Shown here one piece after another: positions 4,160 to 57,977 of a stretch of DNA of 64,000 bases. Numbering within the stretch: the first letter of the stretch is position 1; each line of letters opens with the position of its first letter. The notes beneath the pieces are model-generated. The model saw only the letters and a list, made by a program, of their open reading frames with translations, was not told the origin of the DNA and did no database searches. A program made the translations under genes and the position numbers. Source of the stretch: Pseudomonadota bacterium (GTDB lineage Bacteria > Myxococcota_A > Polyangia > Polyangiales > JAFGIB01); contig JADGRE010000002.1 of the NCBI GenBank assembly GCA_017881185.1, positions 9,158 through 73,157 of the forward strand. Direction: 5' to 3'.

Positions 4160-4422
4160 TCGAGCATTTCACAGCGGCTCAATGACGTTTCCAGTCTGAC
4201 AGAATAATTATACCCGCACTCGCGGCGGTCGCCATTCTGCGGGCATGCGAGCGCTGCACATGAGCCGGTCTTGCCGCCGTGCGCGCAAGCACGTACATGC
4301 GCACCGGCATGCGCGCGCCGCCTACGCGCAAGCTTCGTGCGTGCCGCGCAAAGTGACACCCCGCGTGCGATTGCGTAAGCTGGGATTTGGAGCGCTTCTT
4401 GAATGCGGTAACGAACAAGTCG

Positions 4423-5820
4423 ATGCCTAAGATCGGCGACGTTGTCGCCGATAAGTACGAGGTCGAGCGCATCATCGGTGAGGGCGGCATGGGAGCGGTG
4501 TTTGCCGCCATGCACAAGCTCACCGGCAGGCGCGTCGCGCTCAAGTGGATGCTGCCCGAGCTGGCGCGTGACGCCGACGCCGTGCAGCGCTTCATGCGCG
4601 AGGCCCAGGCCGCCGGCCGCATCAACCACCCGAACGTCGTCGACGTCTACGACGTGGGTCAACACGACGACTCGTTCTTTCTCGTCATGGAGTTTCTGCA
4701 AGGTGAGCCGCTCACCGCCGCGCTCGAGCGACGCAACCTCACCGTCGGCGAGGTGGTCGACCTGCTCTTGCCGGCGATGCGCGGCGTCGCAGCCGCGCAT
4801 CGCGGTGGTGTCGTGCACCGCGATCTCAAGCCCGACAACATCTTCCTGTGTCGCGACGAAGAAGGCAGCATCGTGCCCAAGGTGCTCGATTTCGGCATCT
4901 CCAAGCTCGCAAGCCACGACGGCTCGACCGACATGCACCTGACCAAGACCGGCGCGGTGGTCGGGACGCCTTACTACATGTCACCGGAGCAGATCCGCGG
5001 CTCCAAGCAGGTCGACAAGCGCTCGGACGTCTACGCGTTCGGAGTGATCTTGTACGAGGCGCTGACCGGACAGGTGCCGTTCAATGCCGACACCTACAGC
5101 GCGTTGATTCTCGAGATCGCTACAGGCACGGCCAAATCGCCGCGCGACATCGTGCCGACCTTGCCGGAGCCATTGTCGCAGGTCGTGCTCAAGGCGATGG
5201 CGCGCGAGCTTGGCGATCGCTTCCCGGACATGGAGAGCTTTGCCGTCGCGCTCGAGCCCTTCGCATACACGCCTTCGCTGCGCGGCGAGCGTCGCGATCC
5301 AACCGGTCGCCAGGCGAATTCACTCGCCACGGGTGCCACGGTCAACGCGACTCCGTTCACGTCCGAAGCGCCCGGGGTGCCTAGGCAGAAGACGGGCGGG
5401 CGAGTGGCCGTGGCCCTCGTCGCTTTGGCGGTGCTCGGTGCCATCGCTTGGTTCGCCACGCGTGGTGCAGGGCCTGTCGCCGAAGGCGCGCACGTCGTCG
5501 CGCCGGCCGCGGCGAGCCAGCTGGCGCCCGCGGCACCCGCACCGGAAGAAGGCCCTGGCGCGCCCACGCCGCCGCCATCCGCTGCAGCGGTCGCGGCACC
5601 TGCAGCAGCGCCGGAACCCACGGTGGCTGCACCGCCGAATGCTGCCGCGTCTGTCGCACCCGTCGCGCCCGCGCTCAGCCCGCGCGAGCGCAAAGCCCAT
5701 GCGTCGCGCCATGCCGCCGCTGCAGCAGTCGCTGCACCCGTTGCCGCACCCGACAGCGCGCCGCGTGCACCTGCGGCACGCCGTGCCCGCTCTGGCACCC
5801 TGAGCGTCGACGATTTCTGA
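4423..5820 (+). CDS. Hanks-type Ser/Thr protein kinase with TM segment and Ala/Pro-rich C-terminal tail
   Basis: Motifs GEGGMGAVF, VALK, HRDLKPDNIFL, DFGISK, GTPYYMSPEQ. TM segment VAVALVALAVLGAIAWF. Start is ambiguous: ATG at 4423 is preferred over TTG at 4387. Confidence 0.85.
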   Translation: MPKIGDVVADKYEVERIIGEGGMGAVFAAMHKLTGRRVALKWMLPELARDADAVQRFMREAQAAGRINHPNVVDVYDVGQHDDSFFLVMEFLQGEPLTAALERRNLTVGEVVDLLLPAMRGVAAAHRGGVVHRDLKPDNIFLCRDEEGSIVPKVLDFGISKLASHDGSTDMHLTKTGAVVGTPYYMSPEQIRGSKQVDKRSDVYAFGVILYEALTGQVPFNADTYSALILEIATGTAKSPRDIVPTLPEPLSQVVLKAMARELGDRFPDMESFAVALEPFAYTPSLRGERRDPTGRQANSLATGATVNATPFTSEAPGVPRQKTGGRVAVALVALAVLGAIAWFATRGAGPVAEGAHVVAPAAASQLAPAAPAPEEGPGAPTPPPSAAAVAAPAAAPEPTVAAPPNAAASVAPVAPALSPRERKAHASRHAAAAAVAAPVAAPDSAPRAPAARRARSGTLSVDDF

Positions 5821-13567: not shown

Positions 13568-14146
13568 TCAGCGCTTGCGGTTGGTGCGCACTTTCACGAG
13601 ATTCACGTCGCCGCCGCAGTAGATGTCGAGTGCGCTGGCGGCTGCCACCGCTTTGCGCGCGGCTGTCTCGGCATTCACGCGCGGTGCGTAGACCGTGTGC
13701 AGGGCGCCGAGCGCATAGGGTGCGCCCGAGCCCACGGCGTAGTAGTTCGCGAACTCGGTGACGCTCATGTCGCACGCGACGTAGAAGATGCCCTTGGGGC
13801 TCGCCACCAGGAACGCGGCGTCGAGATCGCCGAACGGCGAATCGGTCTCACTGCATTGATCGTTCACGAAGGCGTAGCGGTCGTGCAGCGCTTTCCAGAA
13901 GTTGCGAAAGAACGAGAAGATCGATGCGCTGTCGGTGAGACGCGGCGTCCGACCCGATTTCAGGTAGTCGTCCAGGATGTTCGTGTAGATACCCCAGCCC
14001 GTGGTCGCGATGTATGCCGCGCCAATCTTGCGAAGCTTGATGTCGCGCAGGTTGGCTTCGGGCACGGCACCTGAGCCGAAGGTGCGCTTGCTGTCGGTGG
14101 CAAGCACGATTTCGTTGTCCGCGCGAACGGCTACGGCGATGGACAT
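13568..14146 (-). CDS. Stand-alone proteasome-beta / HslV-like Ntn-hydrolase family protein
   Basis: MSIAVAVRADNEIVLATDSKR matches the N-terminal strand plus the Asp17-like D and Lys33-like K context (IKLRKIG). YAVGSGAPYALGAL matches the GSG..YA.G motif of beta subunits. Confidence 0.6.
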   Translation of the reverse strand: MSIAVAVRADNEIVLATDSKRTFGSGAVPEANLRDIKLRKIGAAYIATTGWGIYTNILDDYLKSGRTPRLTDSASIFSFFRNFWKALHDRYAFVNDQCSETDSPFGDLDAAFLVASPKGIFYVACDMSVTEFANYYAVGSGAPYALGALHTVYAPRVNAETAARKAVAAASALDIYCGGDVNLVKVRTNRKR

Positions 14147-15184: not shown

Positions 15185-16183
15185 ATGTCGGGTGATTTCA
15201 ATCCCAAGGTCGCGCTGGTCACCGGCGCCAGTGGTTTCGTCGGTGGACGTCTGCGCCAGGCGCTCTTGCGCGATGGCTGGGACGTGGTCGCACTCACGCG
15301 TGCCGGCTCGCCCGCACCCAAGGAAGGTCGTGCGGCCGCGGTCGATTACGCTGACCCCGCGAGCTTGCAGCGCGTCGTGGAGCGCGAGCGCCCCGAAATT
15401 GTCTACCACGTCGCCGGTGCCACCAAGGGCGTGCACTACGACGACTTCTTCCGCGGCAACGTCATGCCTACGCGCAACCTGGCGATCGCGCTGCGCAACG
15501 CGCATCCGACGGTGGGACGTCTGCTGCATCTGTCGTCGCTCACGGCCTACGGCCCCTCCACACCCGACGAGCCACGCGTCGAGACCCACGAGCGCAAGCC
15601 TGTCGAGCACTACGGTCGCAGCAAGCTCGAAGCAGAGCTCGTGCTCGAACGCGAGATCGGCAGCAGCGTGCCTTGGACGATCATTCGTCCCGCCGCCGTG
15701 TACGGTCCCGGTGACGTCGACAACTTCGAGCTGTACAAGCTGGCCGTGCGTCGCCTCAACCTGTTCTACGGCAATCGCGAAGGTTGGCTGTCGGCGGTGC
15801 ACGTCGATGACGTGGTGCGCGCGATTCGCGACGCCGCGCACAGCCCCGCGAGCATCGGCAGAGGCTACTTCATCTGCGACGGCAAGCCGCTCACCTGGGA
15901 GCAATATCAAGGCGAGATCGTGCAAGCCACGGGCAAGCCGGCGTTCAATCTGAACTTGCCGGCCGCCAGTGTCGACCTCGCCGGGATTTTCGGCGAGCTC
16001 GCGACGCGCATCGACGGCAAGCCGCGTTTGTTCAACCGTCAGAAGGCCAAGCTCGGCAAGCAAGTTGCGTGGACCTGCCGCCACGACGCCGCACGCAGCG
16101 ACTTCGGCTACGTCCCGCAGATCCCTCTGCGCGAAGGCGTGGCCGACACGCTGCAGTGGTACCGCTCGCAGGGTTGGCTCTAA
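15185..16183 (+). CDS. NAD-dependent epimerase/dehydratase (extended SDR) family protein
   Basis: VTGASGFVGGRL (GxxGxxG) and YGRSKLEAE (YxxxK). Confidence 0.8.
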   Translation: MSGDFNPKVALVTGASGFVGGRLRQALLRDGWDVVALTRAGSPAPKEGRAAAVDYADPASLQRVVERERPEIVYHVAGATKGVHYDDFFRGNVMPTRNLAIALRNAHPTVGRLLHLSSLTAYGPSTPDEPRVETHERKPVEHYGRSKLEAELVLEREIGSSVPWTIIRPAAVYGPGDVDNFELYKLAVRRLNLFYGNREGWLSAVHVDDVVRAIRDAAHSPASIGRGYFICDGKPLTWEQYQGEIVQATGKPAFNLNLPAASVDLAGIFGELATRIDGKPRLFNRQKAKLGKQVAWTCRHDAARSDFGYVPQIPLREGVADTLQWYRSQGWL

Positions 16184-16207: not shown

Positions 16208-16558
16208 ATGATCGAAGGCCTCTTCGTGTTCGGCGTGGTGGGGCTCTTGGTGGTGCTCGGGTTCAGCGCGCTGTTTCTGTCGCTCGAGACCATCGTGATC
16301 GTGGGCGTGGCGTGCGTGGCTGTCGGCATCGCTGTCGGCTTGCCCGCCGGAACCTACTACCACCTCAAGCTCTATCGCTGTGTTGCAGCGCGCGGCCCCG
16401 TACCACGGCGCTTCTGGCTATCGCCCACGCAATTCCACGCCGACCTCGAGCCCGCGCAGTGGCGAGACGTCGCGCCCTGGTTCGTCATGGGCGGCGCCGG
16501 CTTCATGTTGATCGTGCTCGGCTGCTTGATCGTGATGGTGGGCGTGCTGCGCGCTTGA
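16208..16558 (+). CDS. Small integral membrane protein (116 aa, about 3 TM)
   Basis: High GC3 and three long hydrophobic stretches. No family recognised. Confidence 0.6.
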   Translation: MIEGLFVFGVVGLLVVLGFSALFLSLETIVIVGVACVAVGIAVGLPAGTYYHLKLYRCVAARGPVPRRFWLSPTQFHADLEPAQWRDVAPWFVMGGAGFMLIVLGCLIVMVGVLRA

Positions 16559-16609: not shown

Positions 16610-18139
16610 CTACTTGTTCAGCGCCTTCATCGCCACGGCACGCACCGTAGCGTCTTCGTCTTGCGTGGCGGCCTGCAGCGCTGCACCGAAGAGCTCGGGG
16701 TCCAGCTTGCTCATCGCGCGCACCGCGTAGTAGCGGATGAGCGAGTTGTCGGACTTCTGGTCCTTCTCGAGACGCTGGCTGACGCGCTTCTTTACGTCTT
16801 CCGAGTCGCTCTCTTTGAACTCTTTGACCAGCTGATCGTAGGCGTCACGGTCGGGCATCGACGCCGTGTGTGGCGGCGGGATCGACGCGGCCGGGCGCGT
16901 GGTGTCGCGCACGGTGGTGATGGGCGTCGCCGCGGGCTTACGCACAGGCGCCGGCTTCGGCGGCAAGCGCGACGGGATGTCGCCCGACGAGGTGTCGGTG
17001 AGGCGACGACGCACGGTGCCTGGGCTCGTGCGGAACAGCTCATACTCTTCGATCTCGCCCAGATCGAGACCCGACAAACCGCGCTGCAACTTCGCGCGCA
17101 GCTGGCCGCCCTCACGCTTGGCGGCAGCGACCATCTCCTGGATGCCGTCGGGCAAGGCCTGCGACGAGCAGAACACCCGCAGCGTGGCCAGGCCCTGCTT
17201 GTCGCTCGTGCGGTACACGCCCATGTGGATGGCGGCGCCGCCGGTCTCGTCCTTCAGCTGTTCGTTGATGTGCTCGAAGAAGGTGTACGGTGTGTCGGCG
17301 AGCAACGAGTCGGGCGCTTCGATGACCACGCCCATGTACGAGACGTTCTCGAGCTGAAAGCCTTCGGGGTTGATGCTGCTGTGCAGGATGCCGTCGCGCA
17401 CGGCCTGGACCACGGCGTCGACCGACAGCCGCGGCAGCGTGGTGGACGCGAAAGTGATGATGCCGCCCGAGAGCAGCAAGGTGCGGAAGTCTTCGCCATC
17501 GAGCGAGCGGATCGCCGTGATGTCGTCGCGGCTGTTCAGCTGGTTGAGCGCGTCGAGCGGCTCGGCGATGATCTTGTTGATCTCGGCGTAGTACTTGTCG
17601 AGTGACACCGCACCGTGGTTCTTCGCCAGGCGCGCGTTGTCGACGAACACCCAGCCGAGCAGGTTCTCTTTGACCAGCTCGTTCACGGCGCGCACCGCGT
17701 TCACCTTGGCGATGCCGCTCTCGTGCTCGTTCGGCAAGGTGGCGAGCACCAGCAAGGGCAATGAAAGATCGGCCAGCGTGCGGATGAGCTCGGCCACGGC
17801 CGAGCCGGTGCCACCGCCGAGGCCGGCGGTGATGAGCACTGCGTCTGCGCCCGCGGCGTGCTCCGAGATGCGCTCGCGGATCTTGCCGGCGTGCACCGTG
17901 ATGCACTCGCGGCCGTAGCTGAGATCCGAGCCAGCGCCGTCGTAGCCGTCGATGCCGATGTACATGCGCTGCTCTTCGGGCAGCGACAGGCCGCTCCTGG
18001 AGAGCGACTTGAGGTCGGTGTCCGCGGTGTTGAGCGCGATGGCGCGGTAACCGCGACGCGCGAACTCTGCTGCGAGGTTTCCACCCGCTTGGCCCAGACC
18101 CACGATGACGATCTCGATAGCTTTCCCAGCTGGCTTCAC
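16610..18139 (-). CDS. Divergent tubulin/FtsZ-superfamily GTPase with Pro-rich linker and C-terminal HEAT-like repeats
   Basis: Motifs IVGLGQAGGN, TAGLGGGTGSA (tubulin signature), NEHESG, FVDNARL and SLDGEDFRTLL, with tail YYAVRAMSKLDP...DEDATVRAVAMKALNK. The GTG at 18139 follows GGAGGAA; the track ATG at 18169 has no SD. Confidence 0.75.
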   Translation of the reverse strand: MKPAGKAIEIVIVGLGQAGGNLAAEFARRGYRAIALNTADTDLKSLSRSGLSLPEEQRMYIGIDGYDGAGSDLSYGRECITVHAGKIRERISEHAAGADAVLITAGLGGGTGSAVAELIRTLADLSLPLLVLATLPNEHESGIAKVNAVRAVNELVKENLLGWVFVDNARLAKNHGAVSLDKYYAEINKIIAEPLDALNQLNSRDDITAIRSLDGEDFRTLLLSGGIITFASTTLPRLSVDAVVQAVRDGILHSSINPEGFQLENVSYMGVVIEAPDSLLADTPYTFFEHINEQLKDETGGAAIHMGVYRTSDKQGLATLRVFCSSQALPDGIQEMVAAAKREGGQLRAKLQRGLSGLDLGEIEEYELFRTSPGTVRRRLTDTSSGDIPSRLPPKPAPVRKPAATPITTVRDTTRPAASIPPPHTASMPDRDAYDQLVKEFKESDSEDVKKRVSQRLEKDQKSDNSLIRYYAVRAMSKLDPELFGAALQAATQDEDATVRAVAMKALNK

Positions 18140-18455
18140 GGCTTCCTCCGTTTCACACCCCCGGTACATTGGGGACGGCCACTATAGACCCGGCTTTTGG
18201 CCGGAGTCCATCGCCACCGGCTCGTGTTTCAGAGGTTGGGACGGGGGCCGTGAGAAGAAGCGATCACGGCGCCGTCTTGCTGCAGCAGTGGAAGCCGACG
18301 TTGGGCAGGCGCAGGTCGGCCGCGCCGACCGGGCAGTCGAAGTCGCAGCGCAGGCCCGCCGGCAGGTTGTTGCCGCACGCCGGGTCGATCGTGTCGGGCT
18401 GCCGTTGTCGGCTTCGTCGCACCCTTGGGTTTCGGGATGTTATGCTGCTTGAGCC

Positions 18456-18806
18456 ATGTCGAGTCAGACCACGATTCCGAAGCCGAACGCCATCGTCGTG
18501 GTCGTCGGGGGCCCCGCCGATCTCATCGCCGCAACGCGCCAGGCCGCCGGCGTTGCAGCAGCGGCCCGGCTCGAGACCGCGGAGATCGGCAACGCGGCCA
18601 CGGTGGTTGCGACCCACCGGCCCTTCGCCATCGTCATGAGCGAAGACGTGTATGCGTTCGATTCCGCGGAGTTCGAGGCGCTGGCGCGCGACGTCAACGC
18701 CGTGCTCATCCGCATCGACATCGACAACGCAACCAAGGCGAAGCTCGAGCGCACGCTCATGCCGAAGCTCGGTCAGGCGCACCGCAAGCGCTCGGCGCTC
18801 GAGTAG
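18456..18806 (+). CDS. Hypothetical 116-aa protein (alternating beta/alpha pattern)
   Basis: High-GC3 ORF with plausible composition (IVVVVGGP ... PFAIVMSEDVY ... VLIRIDID). Divergent from the tubulin-like gene. No family recognised. Confidence 0.55.
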   Translation: MSSQTTIPKPNAIVVVVGGPADLIAATRQAAGVAAAARLETAEIGNAATVVATHRPFAIVMSEDVYAFDSAEFEALARDVNAVLIRIDIDNATKAKLERTLMPKLGQAHRKRSALE

Positions 18807-18808
18807 CT

Positions 18809-20155
18809 CTAGAGCGCGCCTTCGATGGCGGGGCCGTCGCCGAGGTGCCCGCCGAAGAGGCGCCCCTGTGCAACGTAGGCCCAGTGCTGCGAGCCGTCGG
18901 CTTGCGGCACGACAGCCAGCTGCGAGCCGTCGGCGGGCGGCAGCTCACCATCGAGCAGGCGCTGGCCGATGTCGCCGCGCGTTCCACCCGGCACCCGTAG
19001 CGTGGTGCTGCGACCGTCGCTGCCGTGCACTGCGTATTCGGTGAACAGCAGCCCGTCCACTTCGAGGGTTTGCAGCTGCTTGGCCTCGCCCACGCGCAAG
19101 TCGCGCGGCTGCGCGTTGCCGAGCAGCGCACGCATGCGCTCGGCGCTCTGCGGCAGGCAGAGCGCGACCGCGTTGCGTGGCGCACGCGCCAACAGCTGGC
19201 CCAGCACCTGGTGCGCCCGCATCGCCACCTGCTCGTCCGGGCTGCTGCACAGCGCCTCGGCCAGAGCGCGCTCGTCGCGCGTGCCGTTGCTGACCAGCGC
19301 CTCGGGGCTGAGTGTGAGCGGCTCGCCGAAGCCAAACAGCAAGCCGAGCACGCACAGTGGCAGTAAGCGCAGCGCCGCGCTGCGGGCGCGTCGCAGTCGG
19401 CCCGACAACGGCCGCAACGCCAGCGCCAGCACACCGAACGCGAGCCAGCTGCGACCCGCGTGTGACTTGCCGGCGATCGTCAGCGCGCCGCAACCCGACG
19501 CCGATGCCGGCGGCGAGCTGAGGTAGTTCTCCATGACGCCCTGTTCATCGTCGTTCGCGAGGCTGCGCTTCTTGGTCTCGCCCGGCATGGCATACGGCCA
19601 CATCGTCGCGCCGCTGTCGGCGGCACTCTCGCCCAGACCGAGCACGTGGCCGGTCTCGTGCGTGAGCACGGCCGCGATGTCGTAGCTCGTGGTCTGCTGC
19701 TGCGAATGCTCGTCCAGCAACGCAAACTTGGTCTCGCCGTTCACGAGCACGTCGGCGTCGAGCAAGCGCCCGGTGGTCATCTCGTAGGTGACGACCGTGA
19801 TCGCGAGCTTCGCGCGCTCGTACGGCCACGACTCGAGCAGATAGACCCCGTTGGTCGGCGCCTTGCCGTGGTGGCCAGGCGACGCGCTCGGTGCTCCGGG
19901 CTGCAGCACGAGGTCGGGCACACGCGGCAGCCCGCGCCACGCCTCGAAGCCCATCTCGACGGCGGCGTAGGCGTCTCCGGGTGGCAGCCACTTCTCGAGC
20001 GCAGGATCGAGCTGCAGCCCGACCGTGTCCACGCTCCAACGGATGCGCTTGCCGCTCTCGGTCGTGTTGATCGTGTACGCATGCACCGGGCAGCAGAAGC
20101 CGACCAGAACGGTGGTGGTCAGCAAGACCGTGACGACTGCGATCGATAGCCTCAT
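18809..20155 (-). CDS. Secreted metzincin-like zinc metalloprotease with internal Cys/TM/Arg segment and C-terminal extra domain
   Basis: Signal peptide. HETGHVLGLGES is an HExxHxxGxxE variant, with a Met-turn candidate GATMWPY. An internal SGCGALTIAGKSHAGRSWLAFGVLALALRPLSGRLRRAR is followed by a second hydrophobic segment and about 170 aa. Confidence 0.7.
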   Translation of the reverse strand: MRLSIAVVTVLLTTTVLVGFCCPVHAYTINTTESGKRIRWSVDTVGLQLDPALEKWLPPGDAYAAVEMGFEAWRGLPRVPDLVLQPGAPSASPGHHGKAPTNGVYLLESWPYERAKLAITVVTYEMTTGRLLDADVLVNGETKFALLDEHSQQQTTSYDIAAVLTHETGHVLGLGESAADSGATMWPYAMPGETKKRSLANDDEQGVMENYLSSPPASASGCGALTIAGKSHAGRSWLAFGVLALALRPLSGRLRRARSAALRLLPLCVLGLLFGFGEPLTLSPEALVSNGTRDERALAEALCSSPDEQVAMRAHQVLGQLLARAPRNAVALCLPQSAERMRALLGNAQPRDLRVGEAKQLQTLEVDGLLFTEYAVHGSDGRSTTLRVPGGTRGDIGQRLLDGELPPADGSQLAVVPQADGSQHWAYVAQGRLFGGHLGDGPAIEGAL

Positions 20156-21109: not shown

Positions 21110-22519
21110 GTGAGAAAGCCGCCCAGTCCGAAGACCGTCGCCGAGGCCCGTGAGGCCGGCTTCCGGCCACGCAGCGTGCGTGCCGAGATCCGCGACAACT
21201 TACTGCGCAAGCTCGCCGCGCGCGAGCCGCTGTTCCCTGGCATCCACGGCTACGAAGACACCGTGTTTCCAGCTGTCGAAAACGCGTTGCTCGCGGAGCA
21301 AGATCTGCTCTTCCTCGGCGAGCGCGGTCAGGGCAAGTCGCGGCTCATTCGCAGCTTGCTCGGGCTGCTCGATGAGTGGATCCCGGAGCTTGCAGGCAGC
21401 GAAGTGCACGACGACCCGGCCGCACCGATCTCGGCGCAGGGGCGTCTCTTGCTCGCCGAGCACGGAGAGCGCGCGCCGATCCGCTGGCTGCACCGCGACG
21501 AGCGCTACGGCGAGAAGCTCGCCACGCCCGACGTGTCGACTGCCGACTTGATCGGCGACGTCGACCCCATGCGCGTGGTCGAGGGCCGTTCGCTCGGAGA
21601 CGAGCTCACGATGCACTACGGGATCTTGCCGCGTACCAACCGCGGCATCTTCTGCATCAACGAGCTGCCGGATCTCACCGAGAAGATCCAGGTCGCGCTG
21701 TTCAACGTGATGGAAGAGCGCGATGTGCAGATCAAGGGCTACCGCGTGCGCTTGCCGCTCGATGTGTTGGTCGTCGCCAGCGCCAACCCCGAGGACTACA
21801 CCAGCCGCGGGCGCATCGTCACTCCGCTCAAAGATCGCTTCGCCGCGCAGATCCGCACGCACTATCCGCGCACGCGCGCCATCGAGCTGCAGATCGTGGA
21901 GCAAGAGGCGGTGCCGTTGTCGGTGCCCGGCGTGGAAGTGGTGGTGCCTTCGTTCATGAAGAAGATCCTCGCCGAGATCACCTTCCAGGCGCGGCAGAGC
22001 CCCGATGTCAGCCAGAGCTCGGGCGTGTCGGTGCGCATGACCGTGGCCAGCTACGAGACGCTGGTAGCCAACGCAGTGCGCCGCGCGCTGCGCAACGGGG
22101 ATCGCCATGCCGTGCCGCGCATCTCGGACCTGTGGGCGCTGCATCACTCGATGCTCGGCAAGATCGAGCTCGAGTACGCCGGCAAGCGTTCGGAGGACGA
22201 GCTGGTGAAGAACCTGATCGCGCGCGCGGTGAAGGTAGTGTTCGACGGCGCGGTGAGCGACGCCGCGAGCCTCGATGCCATCGCCGCTGCGTTCGGTCAG
22301 GGCTGGATGGTGGAAGTGTCCGACATGACGCCGGCAGCAGAGTTTCTCGCCGGCCTCGACAAGATCCCCGGGCTGCGCAAGGCCGTCGCTCAGCTTGCCG
22401 AAGGCGAGACACCCGCGATGTATGCTTCGGCAGTGGAGCTGATCTTGGAGGGCCTGCACTTGAGCAACCGCTTGAACAAGACCACTTCCGAGCACGCCGC
22501 CACCTACGCACACAAGTGA
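21110..22519 (+). CDS. AAA+ ATPase of the Mg-chelatase (ChlI/BchI) / MoxR-like type
   Basis: Walker A LGERGQGKS, Walker B-like GIFCINELPD, then VVASANPEDYTSRGRIVTPLKDRF. GTG start. Confidence 0.75.
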   Translation: MRKPPSPKTVAEAREAGFRPRSVRAEIRDNLLRKLAAREPLFPGIHGYEDTVFPAVENALLAEQDLLFLGERGQGKSRLIRSLLGLLDEWIPELAGSEVHDDPAAPISAQGRLLLAEHGERAPIRWLHRDERYGEKLATPDVSTADLIGDVDPMRVVEGRSLGDELTMHYGILPRTNRGIFCINELPDLTEKIQVALFNVMEERDVQIKGYRVRLPLDVLVVASANPEDYTSRGRIVTPLKDRFAAQIRTHYPRTRAIELQIVEQEAVPLSVPGVEVVVPSFMKKILAEITFQARQSPDVSQSSGVSVRMTVASYETLVANAVRRALRNGDRHAVPRISDLWALHHSMLGKIELEYAGKRSEDELVKNLIARAVKVVFDGAVSDAASLDAIAAAFGQGWMVEVSDMTPAAEFLAGLDKIPGLRKAVAQLAEGETPAMYASAVELILEGLHLSNRLNKTTSEHAATYAHK

Positions 22520-24153
22520 AGGTCCATCGCTACAGCAAGTGGGACGCGACGCAGGCGGAGCTCTCGCTCGATGCCGCGGACGCGCTCGACGCGCTGGCGG
22601 ACGTGATGATGCACGGGCTGTCACCGCGCGACGCCATGCAGTACCTGGAGCGCTTCGGCTTCGAGCTGGCAGGCAAGGACTTTCGCGTGCTCGGCAGCCA
22701 GGAGCTCTCGCGCGAGCTACGCAAGCAGGCGCACGAGCTCTACGAGGGTCACAAGCTGGACGACCCGTTCGCGCAGCTGCGGGAACGTTTGCAGCAGCTG
22801 CAGGCGATCGAGCAGCAGACCTTGCGCGAGCGTCATGGTTACGAGTCGCGCGCGATGAACGAGTTTCTGGAGCGGCGACACGCACCCGCCGCGAACCTCT
22901 CGCAGGCGATTGCGCGCTTCGAGGACTACGACTTCCAGGACGACGACGCGCGCGAGCGCTACGACGAGCTGCGCTCCGAGCTGCCACAGCTGCGTGAGCT
23001 CGAGCGCTTCACGCAGGAGCAGGGCGCACGTTTTCGCGGTCGACCGCAGGCCGACTACGAGACCGCGCAAGCGCTACGCAAACGCTTGCAGACCATCGAG
23101 GCCATCACCCAAGCCATCGAGGCTGGCGAGCTGGGGAACATCGATACGAGCCAGCTCGCTGAGCTGCTCGGCGACGGCGCAGCGCGCTCGCTCATGATCT
23201 TGCGCGACCTTCCATCGCGCCTCGCCGACGAAGGGTACCTGCGCGAGCAGGGCAGTGTACCCGAGCTCACGGCCAAAGCCGTGCGTCGCATCGGACAACG
23301 CGCGCTCGCCGACGTGTACACCATGCTGCGCAAGGGCCGCAGCGGTGAGCATGGCACGAGCGATCGCGGCGCCGGCAGCCCACGGCCCGACGAAACGCAT
23401 CCGTACCAGTTCGGCGATGCGTTCGAGATCGACGTGACCAAGACCGTGCTCAATGCGCTGCGCAGCGCTGCCTCGCGCGCCGTGAGTGACCCGCATCCGC
23501 GCAAGCTGCGCGTGTCGGTGTCGGACGTGGAAGTGCGGGAGCACGACTTCAGCACCGACACGACGACCGTGCTGCTCTTGGATCTATCGTGGTCCATGTC
23601 GTTCGAAGGGCGCTTTCCCGCAGCCAAGCGCGTCGCGCTGGCCATGGATCATCTGATTCGCACCCAGTTCCCCCGCGACCGCTTCTTCATCGTGGGCTTC
23701 TCCACGCGCGCGCGTGAGCTCTCCATTGCAGAGCTGCCGGCCGTGTCGTGGGACCCGTCTGATCCGTTCACGAACCTGCAGGAGGGGCTGCAGCTGGCCG
23801 AGCGCTTGATCGCCGCGCACCCGTCACGCAGCCCGCAGGTGCTCGTGATCACCGACGGCCAACCGACCGCGTACTGCGCCGGCAACGAGCTGCACGTGGA
23901 GTGGCCGAGCGGTTACGGCGGCATCTCTCCCAACGCCGTCGCCTACACCCTCGAGCAGGTGCACCGCATCACACGCCGAGGCGTGGTCATCAACACCTTC
24001 ATGCTGCACGACTCGCCGGAGCTGGTGGGTTTCGTGGAGCGCATGACCGAGATCAACCACGGTCGAGCTTTGTTCACCGACCCGAGCCAGCTCGGCTCGT
24101 ACGTGATGGTCGATCACCTCAACCAGAAGCGTCGGTCGCGCGCGCGCTCGTAG
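22516..24153 (+). CDS. von Willebrand factor A (vWA) domain protein, partner of the preceding AAA+ ATPase
   Basis: MIDAS motif VLLLDLSWSMS ... VITDGQPT. Long helical N-terminal region. The GTG start overlaps the upstream stop (GTGA). Confidence 0.7.
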   Translation: MKVHRYSKWDATQAELSLDAADALDALADVMMHGLSPRDAMQYLERFGFELAGKDFRVLGSQELSRELRKQAHELYEGHKLDDPFAQLRERLQQLQAIEQQTLRERHGYESRAMNEFLERRHAPAANLSQAIARFEDYDFQDDDARERYDELRSELPQLRELERFTQEQGARFRGRPQADYETAQALRKRLQTIEAITQAIEAGELGNIDTSQLAELLGDGAARSLMILRDLPSRLADEGYLREQGSVPELTAKAVRRIGQRALADVYTMLRKGRSGEHGTSDRGAGSPRPDETHPYQFGDAFEIDVTKTVLNALRSAASRAVSDPHPRKLRVSVSDVEVREHDFSTDTTTVLLLDLSWSMSFEGRFPAAKRVALAMDHLIRTQFPRDRFFIVGFSTRARELSIAELPAVSWDPSDPFTNLQEGLQLAERLIAAHPSRSPQVLVITDGQPTAYCAGNELHVEWPSGYGGISPNAVAYTLEQVHRITRRGVVINTFMLHDSPELVGFVERMTEINHGRALFTDPSQLGSYVMVDHLNQKRRSRARS

Positions 24154-25019: not shown

Positions 25020-26882
25020 GTGGGAGCCGTGTCGATTGACCAGCGCGCTCCGGGGGGGCCTCTCGCCGCGGGCGCAAAACTTGGACGCTACGAAATACTC
25101 GCCAAGCTGGCTGCTGGCGGCATGGCCGTGGTGTACGTCGCGCGTGCTTCCGGTGTTGCGGGCTTCGAGCGCTTGGTTGCGATCAAGGTGCTGCACGCGA
25201 ACCTCGCGCACGAAGAAGAGTTCATCAAGATGTTCCTCGACGAAGCGCGGCTCGCTGCGCGCATTCGTCACCCGAACGTCGTGCCCACCATCGACATCAG
25301 CGACTCCGATGAAGCGGGCTACTTCATCGTCATGGACTACATCGAGGGCGACCACCTCGGTCAGATCCTCGGGGCGGCGCACAAGGCAAACGAGAAGCTG
25401 CCGGTGCCGGTCACGCTGCGCATCATCGGCGACGCGCTCGGCGGTCTCGGTGCCGCGCACGACCTGACTGACGAAAACGGCAAGCACCTGCACTTGGTGC
25501 ACCGCGACGTGTCTCCGCACAACATCATGGTCGGCCGCGATGGCGTGGCTCGACTCACCGACTTCGGCGTGGCCAAGGCCGAAGACCGGCTCACGCACAC
25601 GCGTGACGGTCAGGTGAAGGGCAAGCTCGCGTACATGGCGCCCGAGCAAGCGGCCAGCGGCCAGACCGACTCGCGCTCCGATCTGTTCTCGATGGGCGTG
25701 ATCCTCTGGGAGTCGATCACCGGTCGGCGTCTGTTCCGCGCCGAGAGCACGGCTGCCACGCTCCACAAGCTGCTGCACGATGAAATTCCGGCACCGTCCA
25801 CCGTGGACCCGGCGCTCGCACCGCTCGATGGCGTGTTGCAGAAGGCGCTGGCGCGCGATCTCGCGCAGCGTTACCAGACCGCCGAAGAGTTCGCGAACGG
25901 CATCGAGGAAGCGGCGTCGGCCGTCGGCGGCATGTCGTCGTTGCGTGCGGTCAGCAAAGCCGTGAAGCAGCACGCTGCGGTCAAGATCAAGCGCGACAAG
26001 AAATTGATCGACGACGCCATCAGCTCGCTCAAGGCCATCGACGCAGAGGCCAGCGCGTTTTCGGCCGACGCGCTGTCGGAGCCGTCCAATCCGTCGGCAT
26101 CCGACGCTTCGATCGGCTCGCTGAGCATGTCGAAGGTCAGCGGCGTGTTCTCCCATGCAACCATGCCGGGCGCACGCGTGCGTGGTGCTGGTGCGCGCCA
26201 ATCCGAGGGACGCCCGCCACCGGTTGCCGGTGCGTTACCACCGCCGCCTCCGATCGGCACGCTGCCGTCCACCATCCCCGAGCCGCTCGAGCTTTCCGAT
26301 CTGGGCATGGAGCTCGACGAGCATGGCAACCGGCCCGGTGGTCGTTCTCGCGTGGTGCGCGCGACAGTGTTCGCGCTGGGGTTGATCGCCGCCGGCGCAG
26401 TGCTGTGGTTCATGCGACACGGCGATGGTGACACCGTGGGCGACACCGTGCGCGTGCACTCGATCGACAATCCGACGGTTGCGCCGTCAGCCGCCACTTC
26501 GCCGGCTCCGAGCGCGCCCCAGCCCAGCGTTCCGCCGCCCGTTGCCGAGCCCGCTGCCGAGCCCGCGGCCCAGCCGCCCGCCGAAGCCAACAGCGCGCCG
26601 GCGGCCGTCGCCGCTCCGTCCGTTCAACCCCAACCGACGGCGGTAACGCCGCCCGCCGTCGCGCCCGCAGAGCCGACCGCTGCACCTTCGCGCTCTGCCA
26701 ACGCGGTGCGCAAGCCACGACGCGAGACTGGACGCGAGACTGGACGCGAGAACGCGGTCGAGGCGGTGGGCGCACCAAAGCCGGTGGTCGCGGCACCCAA
26801 GCCCGTCGAAGCGCCGCCCAAGCCTGCCCCGTCGCGACACGCCGAGCCGGGCGACTTCATCCCCAACCCTTACCAGAACTAG
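25020..26882 (+). CDS. Hanks-type Ser/Thr protein kinase with TM segment and Pro/Ala-rich tail
   Basis: Motifs AAGGMAVVY, VAIKVL, HRDVSPHNIMV, DFGVAK, YMAPEQ. TM segment VFALGLIAAGAVLWF. GTG start. Confidence 0.85.
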   Translation: MGAVSIDQRAPGGPLAAGAKLGRYEILAKLAAGGMAVVYVARASGVAGFERLVAIKVLHANLAHEEEFIKMFLDEARLAARIRHPNVVPTIDISDSDEAGYFIVMDYIEGDHLGQILGAAHKANEKLPVPVTLRIIGDALGGLGAAHDLTDENGKHLHLVHRDVSPHNIMVGRDGVARLTDFGVAKAEDRLTHTRDGQVKGKLAYMAPEQAASGQTDSRSDLFSMGVILWESITGRRLFRAESTAATLHKLLHDEIPAPSTVDPALAPLDGVLQKALARDLAQRYQTAEEFANGIEEAASAVGGMSSLRAVSKAVKQHAAVKIKRDKKLIDDAISSLKAIDAEASAFSADALSEPSNPSASDASIGSLSMSKVSGVFSHATMPGARVRGAGARQSEGRPPPVAGALPPPPPIGTLPSTIPEPLELSDLGMELDEHGNRPGGRSRVVRATVFALGLIAAGAVLWFMRHGDGDTVGDTVRVHSIDNPTVAPSAATSPAPSAPQPSVPPPVAEPAAEPAAQPPAEANSAPAAVAAPSVQPQPTAVTPPAVAPAEPTAAPSRSANAVRKPRRETGRETGRENAVEAVGAPKPVVAAPKPVEAPPKPAPSRHAEPGDFIPNPYQN

Positions 26883-27002: not shown

Positions 27003-27896
27003 ATGCAAGAGGATTGGGAGGACAAGACCATCATCTCGACGGACGTTGCGCCGACGGCCACGTCGGGTCGCAAGCGTGCCCAGCTCATCGTCGTGGCCGG
27101 GGCCAACGTCGGAGAGATGTACGACCTCAAGGGCACGCTCATCATCGGGCGCGGCCGTGAGGCCGACATCCGAGTGCAGGGCGACGGCATCTCGCGCAAG
27201 CATGCGCGGCTGCGCTTGTCGGGCGAAAACGCCGTGCTCGAAGACCTCGGGTCCACCAACGGCTCGTTCGTCAACGGCGAGAAGGTCAGCAGTCGCGTGT
27301 TGGCCGACGGCGACAAGATCCAGGTCGGCACTGCGACCATCCTGAAGTACACGCACCACGACGAGCTCGACGAGGACTTCCAGCGCCAGATGTTCGAGTC
27401 GGCGTCGCGCGATGGGCTGACGCAGAGCTACAACAAGCGCTTCTTCCTGGAGCAGCTGAACAGCGAGTACGCCTACGCCGCACGCCACAGTGCGGAGCTG
27501 TCGTTGATCATGTTCGACATCGATCACTTCAAGCAGGTGAACGACACCTACGGGCACCCGGCCGGTGACTTCGTGCTGTCGCAGCTCACGCGCGCGGTGA
27601 TTCCGGCGATCCGTACCGAAGACATCTTCGCGCGCTACGGCGGCGAAGAGTTCGCCATCCTCTCGCGCACCACGCCGCGTGCTGCGGCCGCGCTCGTGGC
27701 AGAACGTGTGCGCAAGACCATCGAGCAGCACCAGTTCGTGTTCGAGGGCAAGCGCATTCCCGTGACGGTCAGCATCGGCGTGGGCTCCATGCCCGATGCG
27801 AACGTGAAGTCGCCGGAAGACTTGGTCTCGGTGGCGGACAAGGCGCTCTACCAAGCCAAGCGCGGTGGCCGCAACCGCGTGATCGCAGCGGCCTGA
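27003..27896 (+). CDS. FHA domain - GGDEF domain protein (putative phospho-Thr-responsive diguanylate cyclase)
   Basis: FHA part: IIGRGREADIRVQGDGISRKHARL ... STNGSFVNG. GGDEF part: DIDHFKQVNDTYGHPAGD and RTEDIFARYGGEEF, that is an RxxD I-site 5 residues before an intact GGEEF (27612-27653). Confidence 0.85.
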   Translation: MQEDWEDKTIISTDVAPTATSGRKRAQLIVVAGANVGEMYDLKGTLIIGRGREADIRVQGDGISRKHARLRLSGENAVLEDLGSTNGSFVNGEKVSSRVLADGDKIQVGTATILKYTHHDELDEDFQRQMFESASRDGLTQSYNKRFFLEQLNSEYAYAARHSAELSLIMFDIDHFKQVNDTYGHPAGDFVLSQLTRAVIPAIRTEDIFARYGGEEFAILSRTTPRAAAALVAERVRKTIEQHQFVFEGKRIPVTVSIGVGSMPDANVKSPEDLVSVADKALYQAKRGGRNRVIAAA

Positions 27897-29677
27897 TGTC
27901 AGCGTTGACCGCAGGCGACCTGATCGCGGGGCGCTATCGTCTGGAGTCGTTGATCGGCGAAGGCGGCATGGCCAGCGTGTGGCGCGCCGAAGACCTGACC
28001 TTGCGGCGCCCGGTGGCGATCAAGCTCCTGTACCTGCGCGGTCATCGTGACCCGACCGTGATCGTCGATCAGTTCTTGCGCGAAGCACGCATCGCGGCGT
28101 CGGTGCAGCACCGCAACGTGATCCACACGGTGGACTTCGGCGTGGTCGACGACATGCCGTACATGGTGATGGAGTTGCTGTCGGGTGAGAGCCTGCACGA
28201 TCGCATGCAGCGCGAGCCGCGGCTGCGCATGGAAGAGGTCGTGCACTTCGCCAGTCTCACGCTGCGCGGGCTGGCGGCCGTTCATGAAGCGGGCATCGTG
28301 CACCGCGATCTCAAGCCGCAGAACATCTTCCTGCACCGTGACACCGACACCGTGTATCCGAAGATCCTGGACTTCGGCATCTCGCGCAGTCTCGATGGCG
28401 ACCACGAGCGTCCGTCGGCGATCTCGACGCAAGACGGCATGATCGTCGGCACGCCCGACTACATGTCGCCCGAGCAAGCGCGCGGCGAGAAGCACATCGA
28501 CAAGCGCGCCGACATCTACAGCATGGGCGCGATCATCTACGAGGGCATCACCGGTCGCTTGCCGTACGAGGCCAACACCGTGGGCGAGCTGATCGTGAAG
28601 ATCGTGACCACCATCCCGCCGAAGATGATCCAGCTTCGGGCCGACGTGCCCGAGCTGCTCTCGGACTGTGTGGCGCAGGCGATGGCGCACGATCGCGAAG
28701 AGCGCTTCGTCGACGCACAGGTGTTTCGACGCGCGCTGATCTCCGCGGCGGAGAAGGCCTTCGTGGCAGCATCTGGGCCCGCGGGCTCGGAGCGGCCAGC
28801 GCGACAGGCCGTCGCGGCGCCCATGCCTGCGCCCGTGCCCGCCACCGCGGTGCCGTTGCCCTTGCCACCGCCGCCATCAGCGGCGGCGGTGGCACCCGCT
28901 CCGCTGCCCGCTGCGGCCGCTCAAAACGGCTGGGGCGACTTCGAGGGTCTGGCGCAGCAGGCCAGCCGCGAATCGCCGCCGCTGCTGCGCGATCTCCACA
29001 ATCCCAATCCCGCGCTTGCACCCGCGCCTGTGTCTTCCGGGCGCGAGCCCAGCTCGGCGCGCATACCGCTCGGGCCCCGCCCAGCGGAGCCGATCGCTCC
29101 GCTCGCGCTGCCCGCGAATCCCGTGCGCAGCAGCCACGGACACAAGGAGCCGGGCCGACCGAGTGGGGCGCGATCAGCGCCAAGAATCGGACACTCGGCG
29201 CCAGACGACTCGGCGCTCCTGGGCAATTCTCTCGACGGGCTCGGCGGCGGCTTCAGCGCGGACGCGCTCGATCTCGACTACGGCCAAGGTCCCGGTGCCG
29301 CGGCGGCACGATCGCGTGCAGCGCAGAAATCGCCCGGCGCCAAGTCGCCCGTGCAGGCGAAGATCACTGCGGCCAATGCGCGGCCGGCAGCTCGCAAAGC
29401 AGGCCCTGCAGTGGCGCCGGCGGGTGTGGTCGTACGCCGGCCGGCCACTCGTCAACGGCCAAGCGTGTGGTGGCTCGTGCCTGTGGCGCTGGTGATCGGC
29501 CTGCTTGCGCTGCTGCTTTCGCCGGGTTTGTTCTCGGCGCCGGCCCCCGACAGCGCCGCCGCTGCTGCGCTCGAGGCTCGCAACCCTGCCACGGCGGGCT
29601 CCGATCGCCGCATGCAGTACAGCCGTCGGCGCAACGTGGGCGCGCGTCCGGTCGCGTTGCGCGATGTGGGCTTCTGA
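27896..29677 (+). CDS. Hanks-type Ser/Thr protein kinase with long Pro/Ala-rich region and C-terminal TM
   Basis: Motifs GEGGMASVW, VAIKLL, HRDLKPQNIFL, DFGISR, GTPDYMSPEQ. The ATG overlaps the FHA-GGDEF stop by 1 nt (TGATG). Confidence 0.85.
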   Translation: MSALTAGDLIAGRYRLESLIGEGGMASVWRAEDLTLRRPVAIKLLYLRGHRDPTVIVDQFLREARIAASVQHRNVIHTVDFGVVDDMPYMVMELLSGESLHDRMQREPRLRMEEVVHFASLTLRGLAAVHEAGIVHRDLKPQNIFLHRDTDTVYPKILDFGISRSLDGDHERPSAISTQDGMIVGTPDYMSPEQARGEKHIDKRADIYSMGAIIYEGITGRLPYEANTVGELIVKIVTTIPPKMIQLRADVPELLSDCVAQAMAHDREERFVDAQVFRRALISAAEKAFVAASGPAGSERPARQAVAAPMPAPVPATAVPLPLPPPPSAAAVAPAPLPAAAAQNGWGDFEGLAQQASRESPPLLRDLHNPNPALAPAPVSSGREPSSARIPLGPRPAEPIAPLALPANPVRSSHGHKEPGRPSGARSAPRIGHSAPDDSALLGNSLDGLGGGFSADALDLDYGQGPGAAAARSRAAQKSPGAKSPVQAKITAANARPAARKAGPAVAPAGVVVRRPATRQRPSVWWLVPVALVIGLLALLLSPGLFSAPAPDSAAAAALEARNPATAGSDRRMQYSRRRNVGARPVALRDVGF

Positions 29678-57173: not shown

Positions 57174-57977
57174 TCAATCCTGAGCTATCACGCCCACGTC
57201 GCTTCCTTGGAGCCAGCCCTCGGCGCCCCCCGCGACCCGCACGCGCAGGAAGCTGCCGTCGCGCCGCAGGACTCGGGCGCTCTGGCCTTCGTGTGCATGG
57301 CCGCGGCTGCGGGCGCGTGGGTCGGGGCCTTCGCGCAGCTCCGCGTTCTCGCGCAGCACCACGGCGGCCTGGCCTTCGTCGAAGATGCCGCGCTTGACCG
57401 CCAACGCGCCGGCGGCGCTGCCCAGGCCCAGCAGGGTGGTGGCCGCGAGCATGGCGATACCGGCGCGCAGGCTGTCGCCGCGCAGGCGCGGACGCAGCAA
57501 GAGCAGCCCGAAGAATAGCAGGTTCAGCGCCAGCACCCAGCCCGCCAGGGTGTCTTCTCGGTAAGGGGCGACCAGTGCCTGTAGCAGCGGTGGCCGTGTC
57601 TCAATGGTGGCTTCACCCTGGGCCTGAGCCCGGCGCTTGCCTAACGCAGAGCGCGCCATGCCGAGCGCAGTGGCAATCTCGGTGTCCTGCGGTGCGAGCA
57701 GCTGCGCGCGCTCGAAGCAGAGGATTGCGCGGCCCAGCGCACCCAGGCGCGCTTGGGCGGTGCCCAGGTTGAAGTACAGGTCGGCGTCGTGAACGCCGGC
57801 ATCGACCAGCTCCTGGTAGCGTGCCGCGGCGCTGGCGTAGTCGCCCTGGAAGTAGGCCGAGTTGCCGGCGGCGAACAGGCTCTCGAGGCTACTGGCAGCG
57901 GTTGCATGCGCAGCGACGCCGACGCATGAGAGCAGCGCCAAGGATACAACAATGCGTTGCATGGAGGGCCAGCTCAT
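57174..57977 (-). CDS. batE: BatE-like TPR + SH3b protein
   Basis: Signal peptide, TPR (YFQGDYASAAARYQELV), TM helices, and a C-terminal SH3-like AVVLRENAELREGPD...VLRRDGSFLRVRV...GWL. ATGA overlap with batD. Confidence 0.65.
   Translation of the reverse strand: MSWPSMQRIVVSLALLSCVGVAAHATAASSLESLFAAGNSAYFQGDYASAAARYQELVDAGVHDADLYFNLGTAQARLGALGRAILCFERAQLLAPQDTEIATALGMARSALGKRRAQAQGEATIETRPPLLQALVAPYREDTLAGWVLALNLLFFGLLLLRPRLRGDSLRAGIAMLAATTLLGLGSAAGALAVKRGIFDEGQAAVVLRENAELREGPDPRARSRGHAHEGQSARVLRRDGSFLRVRVAGGAEGWLQGSDVGVIAQD

Follow-up and report, generated by a model that had tools for sequence, protein, structure and literature searches.

A Polyangia-specific clade of the tubulin superfamily with a predicted HEAT-like tail on a disordered linker

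The 64,000-nucleotide stretch of the Polyangiales contig JADGRE010000002.1 analysed here (the window, referring throughout to the whole stretch) contains a 509-codon gene whose product carries the GTP-binding loops of tubulin and FtsZ and which lies apart from any cell division gene. The locus raises the question of whether this orphan gene encodes an FtsZ, a plasmid-type segregation motor or a different filament-forming protein, and what its unusual C-terminal region might do. We find that the gene represents a lineage-specific clade of the tubulin superfamily in Polyangia with a new domain architecture, of which our searches returned no earlier description. With a probability of about 0.62, we consider its product to be a chromosomal, Polyangia-specific GTPase from the TubZ/CetZ side of the superfamily that forms GTP-dependent filaments with a tethered adaptor tail.

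The reading frame is unbroken, and its GC content at third codon positions (GC3) of 0.88, in line with coding sequence at the 67% GC of the window, identifies it as a genuine gene. The GTG at 18139 was preferred as start codon over an in-frame ATG at 18169 because the homologues described below begin with the same M/V-K-P-A-G residues. The 5' region of 316 bp reaches the neighbouring divergent gene. A predicted sigma-70-like promoter match upstream of the start would be consistent with a monocistronic gene with its own promoter.

Residues 9-173 of the 509-aa protein match the Pfam Tubulin domain (PF00091) with 63.4 bits against a gathering cut-off of 33 (E=4e-17). This domain contains the T1 loop GLGQAGGN (residues 14-21, 18077-18100), the T4 loop GLGGGTGS with the GGGTG(S/T) signature (residues 106-113, 17801-17824), the T5 loop NEHESG (residues 137-142) and the T6 loop VDNARL, the last within FVDNARL (residues 165-171). 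When the window protein is aligned with E. coli FtsZ and with CetZ-like and TubZ-like proteins, D214 and D217 of its T7 loop fall on D209 and D212 of E. coli FtsZ. Among 34 family members with 56-92% identity to the window protein, invariant residues comprise N21 of T1, G108-S113 of T4 (GGGTGS), D167 and N168 of T6, N188 of H7, and D214 and D217 of T7; the T7 pair is also invariant throughout the tail-bearing proteins denoted A-type, to which the window protein belongs. An AlphaFold2 model built on the 34-sequence alignment had a mean predicted local distance difference test (pLDDT) score of 78.5 and a confident two-domain core, with values mostly of 80-96. Foldseek comparison of this core with the PDB yielded CetZ (3zid, 6e-22), TubZ (4ei7, 4e-21) and CetZ1/2 (4b45, 4b46), followed by many FtsZ chains at ~1e-19; target template-modelling (TM) scores to CetZ, TubZ and FtsZ ranged from 0.74-0.81, the value for TubZ being 0.77. 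Collectively, the domain score, the PDB sequence matches and the modelled fold demonstrate that the protein is a member of the tubulin/FtsZ superfamily with a two-domain tubulin fold.

This result agrees with an initial annotation, made from the sequence alone, that had proposed a tubulin/FtsZ-superfamily GTPase with an FtsZ-like core fold. The reading frame, GTG start and GGAGGAA sequence that it described are present, as are all of the motifs that it quoted: GLGQAGGN, GLGGGTGS, NEHESG, FVDNARL, SLDGEDFRTLL, the Pro/Thr/Ser-rich stretch and the tail YYAVRAM...DEDATVRAVAMKALNK. Only the coordinates that it gave for the two glycine loops, which are those listed above for T1 and T4, fall short, each spanning 8 residues where 10 and 11 had been quoted.

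By sequence and by fold, the core lies nearer to the TubZ/CetZ side of the superfamily than to FtsZ. A single-sequence search of the PDB returned CetZ2, RepX/TubZ and FtsZ at roughly equal E values (~1e-13); the profile of the 34 members placed RepX/TubZ (4ei7, 1e-18) and CetZ (7e-18) ahead of FtsZ (~1e-14). The family's hidden Markov model (HMM), restricted to the core region, gave 85-91 bits for TubZ-like proteins of Bacillales plasmids (Bacillus, Brevibacillus, Planococcus), 68-70 bits for haloarchaeal CetZ-like proteins and 51 bits, the lowest score, for E. coli FtsZ. Phage PhuZ-type tubulins are more remote. The same reference alignment shows the order D-N in T6, as in TubZ, CetZ and tubulin, where FtsZ has N-D. 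The Pfam domain TubZ-like_C (PF22453) is listed in precomputed domain tables for roughly half the close homologues and exceeds its cut-off in distant relatives, with 29.1 bits in the tail-bearing protein P0152 and 33.3 and 43.7 bits in the tailless proteins P0161 and P0169.

The window protein shares with TubZ/RepX, which mediates type III segregation of Bacillus plasmids and phage, the T6 pattern xDNAxL, a C-terminal domain that resembles TubZ-like_C at a score just under the cut-off and a post-core helix followed by a flexible C-terminus, the region that carries the partner-binding function in TubZ. It differs in its chromosomal housekeeping context without tubR or tubC, in its low identity (20-27%), in its restriction to Polyangia and in its tail, where a long disordered linker bears a folded HEAT-like domain instead of a short basic peptide. 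With CetZ, an archaeal cell-shape protein that heads the Foldseek matches, it has ~24-28% identity, the T1 pattern G-x-G-Q-A-G-G and the T6 order D-N in common; encoded away from division genes as CetZ is, it is probably likewise an accessory, non-division paralogue. The family is, however, bacterial, CetZ-like references score below TubZ-like ones on its HMM, and the CetZ-like proteins aligned here possess neither a HEAT domain nor a long linker. FtsZ resembles the window protein in fold, GTP loops, aligned T7 acids and the succession of globular core, variable disordered linker and C-terminal docking element; this element is a ~10-residue peptide in FtsZ and, putatively, an 80-aa HEAT-like domain here. 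The NCBIfam ftsZ equivalog TIGR00065 scores 64.4 bits against a cut-off of 295.2, and the FtsZ_C domain is not listed even at E<=10 in a Pfam scan of the protein. Judged from these profiles, the product is neither canonical nor orthologous FtsZ.

The core is followed by an H11-like helix, a short motif, a linker and a folded tail. The motif, GLDLGEIEEYELFR...RRR, is strongly conserved in the 34-member alignment, in which K350, L351, L358, L360 and R377 are invariant. In the window protein it takes the form GLDLGEIEEYELFRTSPG..RRR and is located inside the region that AlphaFold2 predicts to be disordered (residues 354-429, pLDDT 28-43). A related form occurs in tailless relatives and in the Brevibacillus plasmid TubZ-like protein, and the motif may serve as a linear interaction motif. 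In the 159 A-type sequences that carry core, linker and tail, linker length ranges from 15-476 aa with a median of 56. Pro, Ala, Ser and Arg abound in these linkers, whose net charge is positive in 78% of cases; the A-type core is acidic, with a median net charge of -15. The linker sequence is unalignable across the 34 members, whereas the tail is strongly conserved.

Three copies of the PBS-lyase HEAT-like signature are found in the tail, SEDVKKRVSQRL, SDNSLIRYYAVRAM and QDEDATVRAVAMKAL. Among PDB sequences, the family profile matches chains of alphaRep proteins, which were designed from thermostable HEAT-like repeats, at E values from 1e-14 to 1e-8, and Pfam HEAT_2 (PF13646) appears in the precomputed tables for some homologues. 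Modelled alone (residues 425-509 with 20 homologous tails), the tail forms five helices with a pLDDT of 93 and a predicted TM score of 0.83. Its best Foldseek matches are alphaRep, the AP-1/AP-2 adaptins, COPI, CLASP2 and the PP2A-A subunit, with TM scores of up to 0.76. The three signature copies together with the alphaRep and fold matches justify the term HEAT-like at the level of the predicted fold, an alpha-solenoid of paired antiparallel helices that is borderline by the Pfam threshold. The low linker pLDDT and the five-helix model of the tail thus bear out the disordered linker and HEAT-type tail that had been read from the sequence.

A first homologue search produced 484 matches at E<=1e-3. 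The best 120 of these share 51-92% identity with the window protein, nearly all cover 93-100% of it and, where named, they come from metagenome-assembled genomes (MAGs) of Polyangiales, Sandaracinaceae or 'Myxococcales'; the taxonomy is the same for twelve loci found in GTDB species representatives. When 1.84 billion cluster representatives were searched exhaustively with a profile, 172 proteins were returned at E<=1e-30, and ~45 of these 50%-identity clusters contain core, linker and tail together according to local core and tail HMMs, with lengths of up to 945 aa. The HEAT tail is present in at least 150 homologues, which speaks against a local fusion or assembly artefact, a caveat raised in the initial annotation. 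Because tail and short motif are strongly conserved next to an unalignable linker, the architecture appears to be old and selected. In a bootstrapped neighbour-joining tree of core domains with a small reference set, the tail-bearing sequences and one tailless sequence form a clade with a support of 75/100. In the same tree, and by this method only, two haloarchaeal CetZ-like references form a clade of their own (100/100) apart from the tail family.

On the reading that we favour, the two-domain core would bind GTP via loops T1-T6 and polymerise head to tail. The T7 pair D214/D217 of one subunit would complete the GTPase site of the next, giving dynamic, polar protofilaments; as for FtsZ, TubZ and CetZ, assembly would set off hydrolysis. 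The helix behind the core and the conserved motif of acidic and hydrophobic residues (LDLGEIEEYELFR) would probably make a contact, either between subunits or of a regulatory kind; TubZ touches the adjoining subunit with the stretch that follows its last core helix and binds TubR with the very end of its tail. Disordered, mostly basic and widely differing in length, the linker would serve as a flexible tether, with the three-repeat HEAT-like domain as a docking module that couples the filament to a partner, for example a protein, a membrane anchor or cargo. As such a module, the tail would stand in for the C-terminal peptide of FtsZ and the C-terminal tail of TubZ. We infer polymerisation, GTP turnover, the tether-and-adaptor role and the cellular function; for the latter, we consider primary division and plasmid segregation less likely than a CetZ-like role in shape or positioning or an accessory cytoskeletal one.

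Several observations weigh against this reading. In profile searches of the kind suggested by the initial annotation, both TubZ-like_C (23.2 bits, cut-off 26) and HEAT_2 (residues 431-507; 20 bits, cut-off 27.7) remain just under their cut-offs for this protein. The Foldseek E values for the 85-residue tail are weak, at 7e-3 or worse. In the tree, which supports the tail family itself, the deep nodes that relate the family to TubZ-like and CetZ-like proteins have a support of 24% or less. All homologues derive from uncultured MAGs or metagenomes, and no conserved operon partner was found in the loci examined beyond close relatives.

A further objection is that the tail might bind its own core or adjacent protofilaments and act as an autoinhibitor or a bundling cross-linker. 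We consider this unlikely, although no partner gene is conserved nearby, the strongly acidic core is combined with a basic linker, and CLASP2 HEAT repeats are among the nearest structural analogues of the tail, HEAT/TOG domains being known to bind tubulin in eukaryotes. The alphaRep-tubulin complexes among the PDB matches are designed binders and uninformative on natural function, and the wide range of linker lengths suits a tether that reaches out better than a fixed intramolecular latch.

Another alternative is a TubZ/PhuZ-type DNA-segregation motor of an integrated plasmid or prophage whose tail binds a centromere-adaptor complex. RepX/TubZ as the nearest solved relative by family profile, a C-terminal domain resembling TubZ-like_C, the high scores of plasmid TubZ-like references and the mostly basic linker would all fit such a motor. 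Its genetic hallmarks are missing: there is no co-directional small tubR-like reading frame upstream of the gene, and no tubC-like iterons or other repeat arrays are found there. The flanks are of housekeeping type with order-wide synteny, no mobile-element genes were seen in them, and the GC level is flat over the region. Plasmid and phage collections yielded only distant matches, none above 34% identity, and the genomic context is wholly different among family members. We therefore regard a segregation motor as quite improbable.

It is very doubtful that the protein is a non-polymerising GTPase or a pseudo-cytoskeletal scaffold used as a regulatory switch. Distant relatives in which the core is fused to HD-GYP, glycosyltransferase or YkuD and Cds6_C domains, and the loss of the T7 acids in the B-type relatives described below, would be in line with such a switch; the invariance of all polymer-dependent catalytic residues in A-type proteins is hard to explain without head-to-tail assembly. 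Finally, that the protein is a divergent but canonical, orthologous FtsZ driving division, as JGI pipelines imply by calling many homologues 'cell division GTPase FtsZ' and as the common fold and GTP-binding loops might suggest, is extremely unlikely given the profile scores, the T6 order D-N, the HEAT domain in place of a short docking peptide, the lack of ftsQ, ftsA and mur in the window and the normal, essential FtsZ of myxobacteria such as Myxococcus xanthus.

Table. Positions of the tubulin-like gene, its protein domains, upstream signals, neighbours and related genes. Positions refer to the window unless preceded by a related-locus number (L).
Feature	Position	Strand or orientation	Remarks
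Tubulin/FtsZ-superfamily gene (A-type)	16610..18139	(-)	509 aa; coordinates include the stop codon
N-terminal GTPase domain	17621..18115	(-)	residues 9-173; Pfam Tubulin PF00091, T1/T4/T5/T6 loops
C-terminal (activation) domain, putatively TubZ-like	17132..17506	(-)	residues 212-336; AlphaFold2 pLDDT 77-93
T7 loop SLDGEDFRTLL	17474..17506	(-)	residues 212-222; acidic pair D214/D217
Post-core helix (H11-like) and short motif GLDLGEIEEYELFRTSPG..RRR	17003..17149	(-)	helix residues 331-354; motif residues ~354-379, 17003-17080
Disordered Pro/Ala/Ser/Thr/Arg-rich linker	16853..17002	(-)	residues ~380-429
C-terminal HEAT-like domain	16613..16852	(-)	residues 430-509, 80 aa, five helices, ~three PBS-lyase-type repeats
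Shine-Dalgarno-like GGAGGAA	18143..18149	(-)	3 nt 5' of GTG start 18139; read directly in the sequence
Sigma-70-like promoter match TGGACT-18-TATAGT	18181..18210	(-)	predicted; consensus match only, 1 site vs 0.2 expected
SDR epimerase gene	15185-16183	convergent to tubulin-like gene	neighbour
Gene for small protein with hydrophobic N-terminus	16208-16558		neighbour
Gene for 116-aa protein	18456-18806	(+), divergent from tubulin-like gene	no Pfam or PADLOC match
Matrixin/M10 metalloprotease gene	18809-20155		neighbour
MopE/FGE-sulfatase gene	L001:3686-7858, L006:4155-7724, L010:4312-7881, L012:4114-7863		window equivalent: gap 18140-18455
B-type genes	L026:8001-9458, L027:8001-9527, L028:8001-9497, L033:6001-7464		proteins P0285, P0276, P0273, P0281; Sandaracinaceae MAGs

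The genomic setting is as the initial annotation had described it. No genes of the dcw cluster (ftsQ, ftsA, mur) are present among the ~40 genes scanned in the 64-kb window, nor in 20 related loci, and the tubulin-like gene is flanked by genes for an SDR epimerase, a small membrane protein, a 116-aa protein and a metzincin of the matrixin/M10 type. A scan with the anti-phage defence models of PADLOC gave no relevant match. In close relatives the flanks are syntenic and include the convergent epimerase gene, a proteasome-like gene and the gene for the 116-aa protein. Members with 60% identity or less, and the B-type genes, have entirely different neighbours, which indicates that the synteny among close relatives is inherited and not functional. 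Conservation of the neighbourhood, a check suggested by the initial annotation, does not extend to any neighbour beyond the close relatives, and we rejected the neighbourhood as a pointer to the partner of the tail. An intergenic gap of ~100-600 bp usually lies in front of the family gene in the loci examined.

Some of the neighbours can be followed through related loci. The 116-aa protein is 71-93% identical in seven of them. A 192-aa protein (13568-14146, minus strand) with a partial match of its C-terminal 65 residues to the Pfam Proteasome-subunit domain is 62-88% identical in six. In loci L001, L003, L006, L010 and L012, a gene for a secreted MopE-motif/FGE-sulfatase protein of 1190-1390 aa lies directly upstream of the tubulin-like gene on the same strand and parts it from the gene for the 116-aa protein. 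This gene was discarded as a partner because it is missing in the window, L007 and L011 and hence constitutes a variable insertion. The tubulin-like genes of the window and L001 are 92% identical, yet only L001 of the two has the MopE gene, whose presence or absence is the result of a recent insertion or deletion.

Elsewhere the window has the content of an ordinary chromosome, with genes such as gcvP, mfd and that of an acyl-CoA dehydrogenase. A MoxR-like AAA+ ATPase gene (21110-22519, plus strand) is overlapped in another frame by a mechanically called vWA-domain reading frame (21376-24153, plus strand), the true start of which is probably near 22520; this MoxR-vWA pair lies 3 kb from the tubulin-like gene and is not linked to the family gene in other loci. 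Genes for Ser/Thr kinases and an FHA-GGDEF diguanylate cyclase are located at 4387-5820, 25020-26882, 27003-27896 and 27896-29677. Two of the kinase genes (25020-26882 and 27896-29677) and the cyclase gene are clustered at 25-30 kb, with the third kinase gene (4387-5820) ~19 kb off; such a density of signalling genes is typical of myxobacteria. A run of genes on the minus strand (57174-63978) encodes a BatD-domain protein (57974-59896) and a vWA/DUF58 protein (61913-63028) and resembles a Bat operon of the aerotolerance type.

A search with a divergent tail-bearing representative revealed ~20 clusters of a second subgroup, denoted B-type, which is rarer than the A-type and keeps the linker and HEAT tail. 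Where names are given, they are Sandaracinaceae or 'Myxococcales bacterium'. In B-type proteins, T1 ends in Arg instead of Asn, the T6 Asn is lost, and other residues, usually Arg or Gln, take the place of the two T7 acids. The B-type clade is nested inside the A-type in the neighbour-joining tree, with a support of 77/100, or 98/100 without P0154. Nesting together with the lost catalytic residues suggests that the B-type arose by duplication and subsequent loss of catalytic function, and its members could be either catalytically dead partner subunits or degenerate orthologues. Locus tags, accessions and sample identifiers gave no overlap between A-type and B-type within one genome, which is proof neither way. 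In two loci, L026 and L033, a 470-aa protein without a Pfam match is encoded directly upstream of the B-type gene (L026:6477-7898, L033:4487-5899); it has an apparent N-terminal zinc-ribbon-like CxxC pair, a helical middle part and predicted transmembrane segments. We set it aside, as it is not a tubulin homologue and was seen only in these two loci.

A bolder extension of the filament-and-adaptor reading is a new bacterial cytomotive system in which the HEAT tail would be a built-in cargo or anchor adaptor and A-type subunits would co-polymerise, in some Sandaracinaceae, with T7-dead, T1/T6-degenerate B-type subunits, by analogy with alpha/beta-tubulin and BtubA/B. The tail common to both types, the nesting of B within A and the Sandaracinaceae labels on both are compatible with this idea, which we regard as speculative and improbable.

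Pfam Tubulin_2 (PF13809), which we take to correspond to the FtsZ-like family FtsZl1, scores 11.1 bits on the window protein against a cut-off of 27. FtsZl1 and FtsZl2 are orphan bacterial FtsZ-like families with non-FtsZ C-termini that were identified by motif and profile searches (Makarova & Koonin 2010, PMC2875224). FtsZl1 has no identifiable T6-H7 elements, contains a coiled coil and is encoded in a vWA/OmpA operon, and FtsZl2 has a C-terminal region of ~300 aa of mixed alpha/beta type (PMC2875224). Unlike FtsZl1, the window protein retains T6, H7 and T7 and is not part of a vWA/OmpA operon. A survey from 2023, which named its Tubulin_2-bearing group 'FtsZ-like', reported CetZ-like sequences from Chloroflexota as well as TubZ from Firmicutes (PMC9871819). 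Among the text matches listed for that survey, 'Myxococc' and 'Deltaproteobacteria' are not mentioned and 'heat' occurs only in 'heatmap'. Full-text searches of the literature returned no description of the core-linker-HEAT architecture, nor any of myxobacteria with a second tubulin homologue, in agreement with the initial annotation, which could not place the architecture in a described family.

More distant relatives of the core, with 135-370 bits on the family core HMM, lack the tail and carry other modules instead. In P0169, the core is fused to an actin-fold domain of the PilM/FtsA type, yielding a tubulin-actin fusion. P0196 and P0201 combine it with YkuD and a Cds6_C NTF2-like domain, one cluster member being from a Zixibacteria MAG. 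P0211 has an HD-GYP phosphodiesterase domain, P0248 an N-terminal glycosyltransferase, and P0228 and P0239 N-terminal extensions. All of the distant relatives scanned contain Pfam Tubulin and most also TubZ-like_C. Since they share these domains and differ in their end modules, the window protein is part of a wide group of chromosomal tubulin homologues of TubZ/CetZ-like type whose terminal modules are interchangeable and which have hardly been studied.

Proteins of the tubulin superfamily are the main force-generating filaments of cells, and to our knowledge each new bacterial clade so far, namely TubZ, PhuZ, BtubA/B and CetZ, has turned out to use the same polymer in a new way. The clade described here stands apart from these in being chromosomal, in being confined to the cell-biologically complex Polyangia and in carrying a folded, putative interaction domain on an entropic tether where others have a short docking peptide. 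These three differences make it a natural test of the combination of filament, linker and adaptor. With their range of 15-476 aa, its linkers offer a ready-made experiment on what such tethers do, which is still under debate for FtsZ. In the wider clade, the fusions of the core to HD-GYP, cell-wall enzyme and PilM/FtsA-like actin-fold domains suggest a set of tubulin-based machines in bacteria that is largely unexplored.

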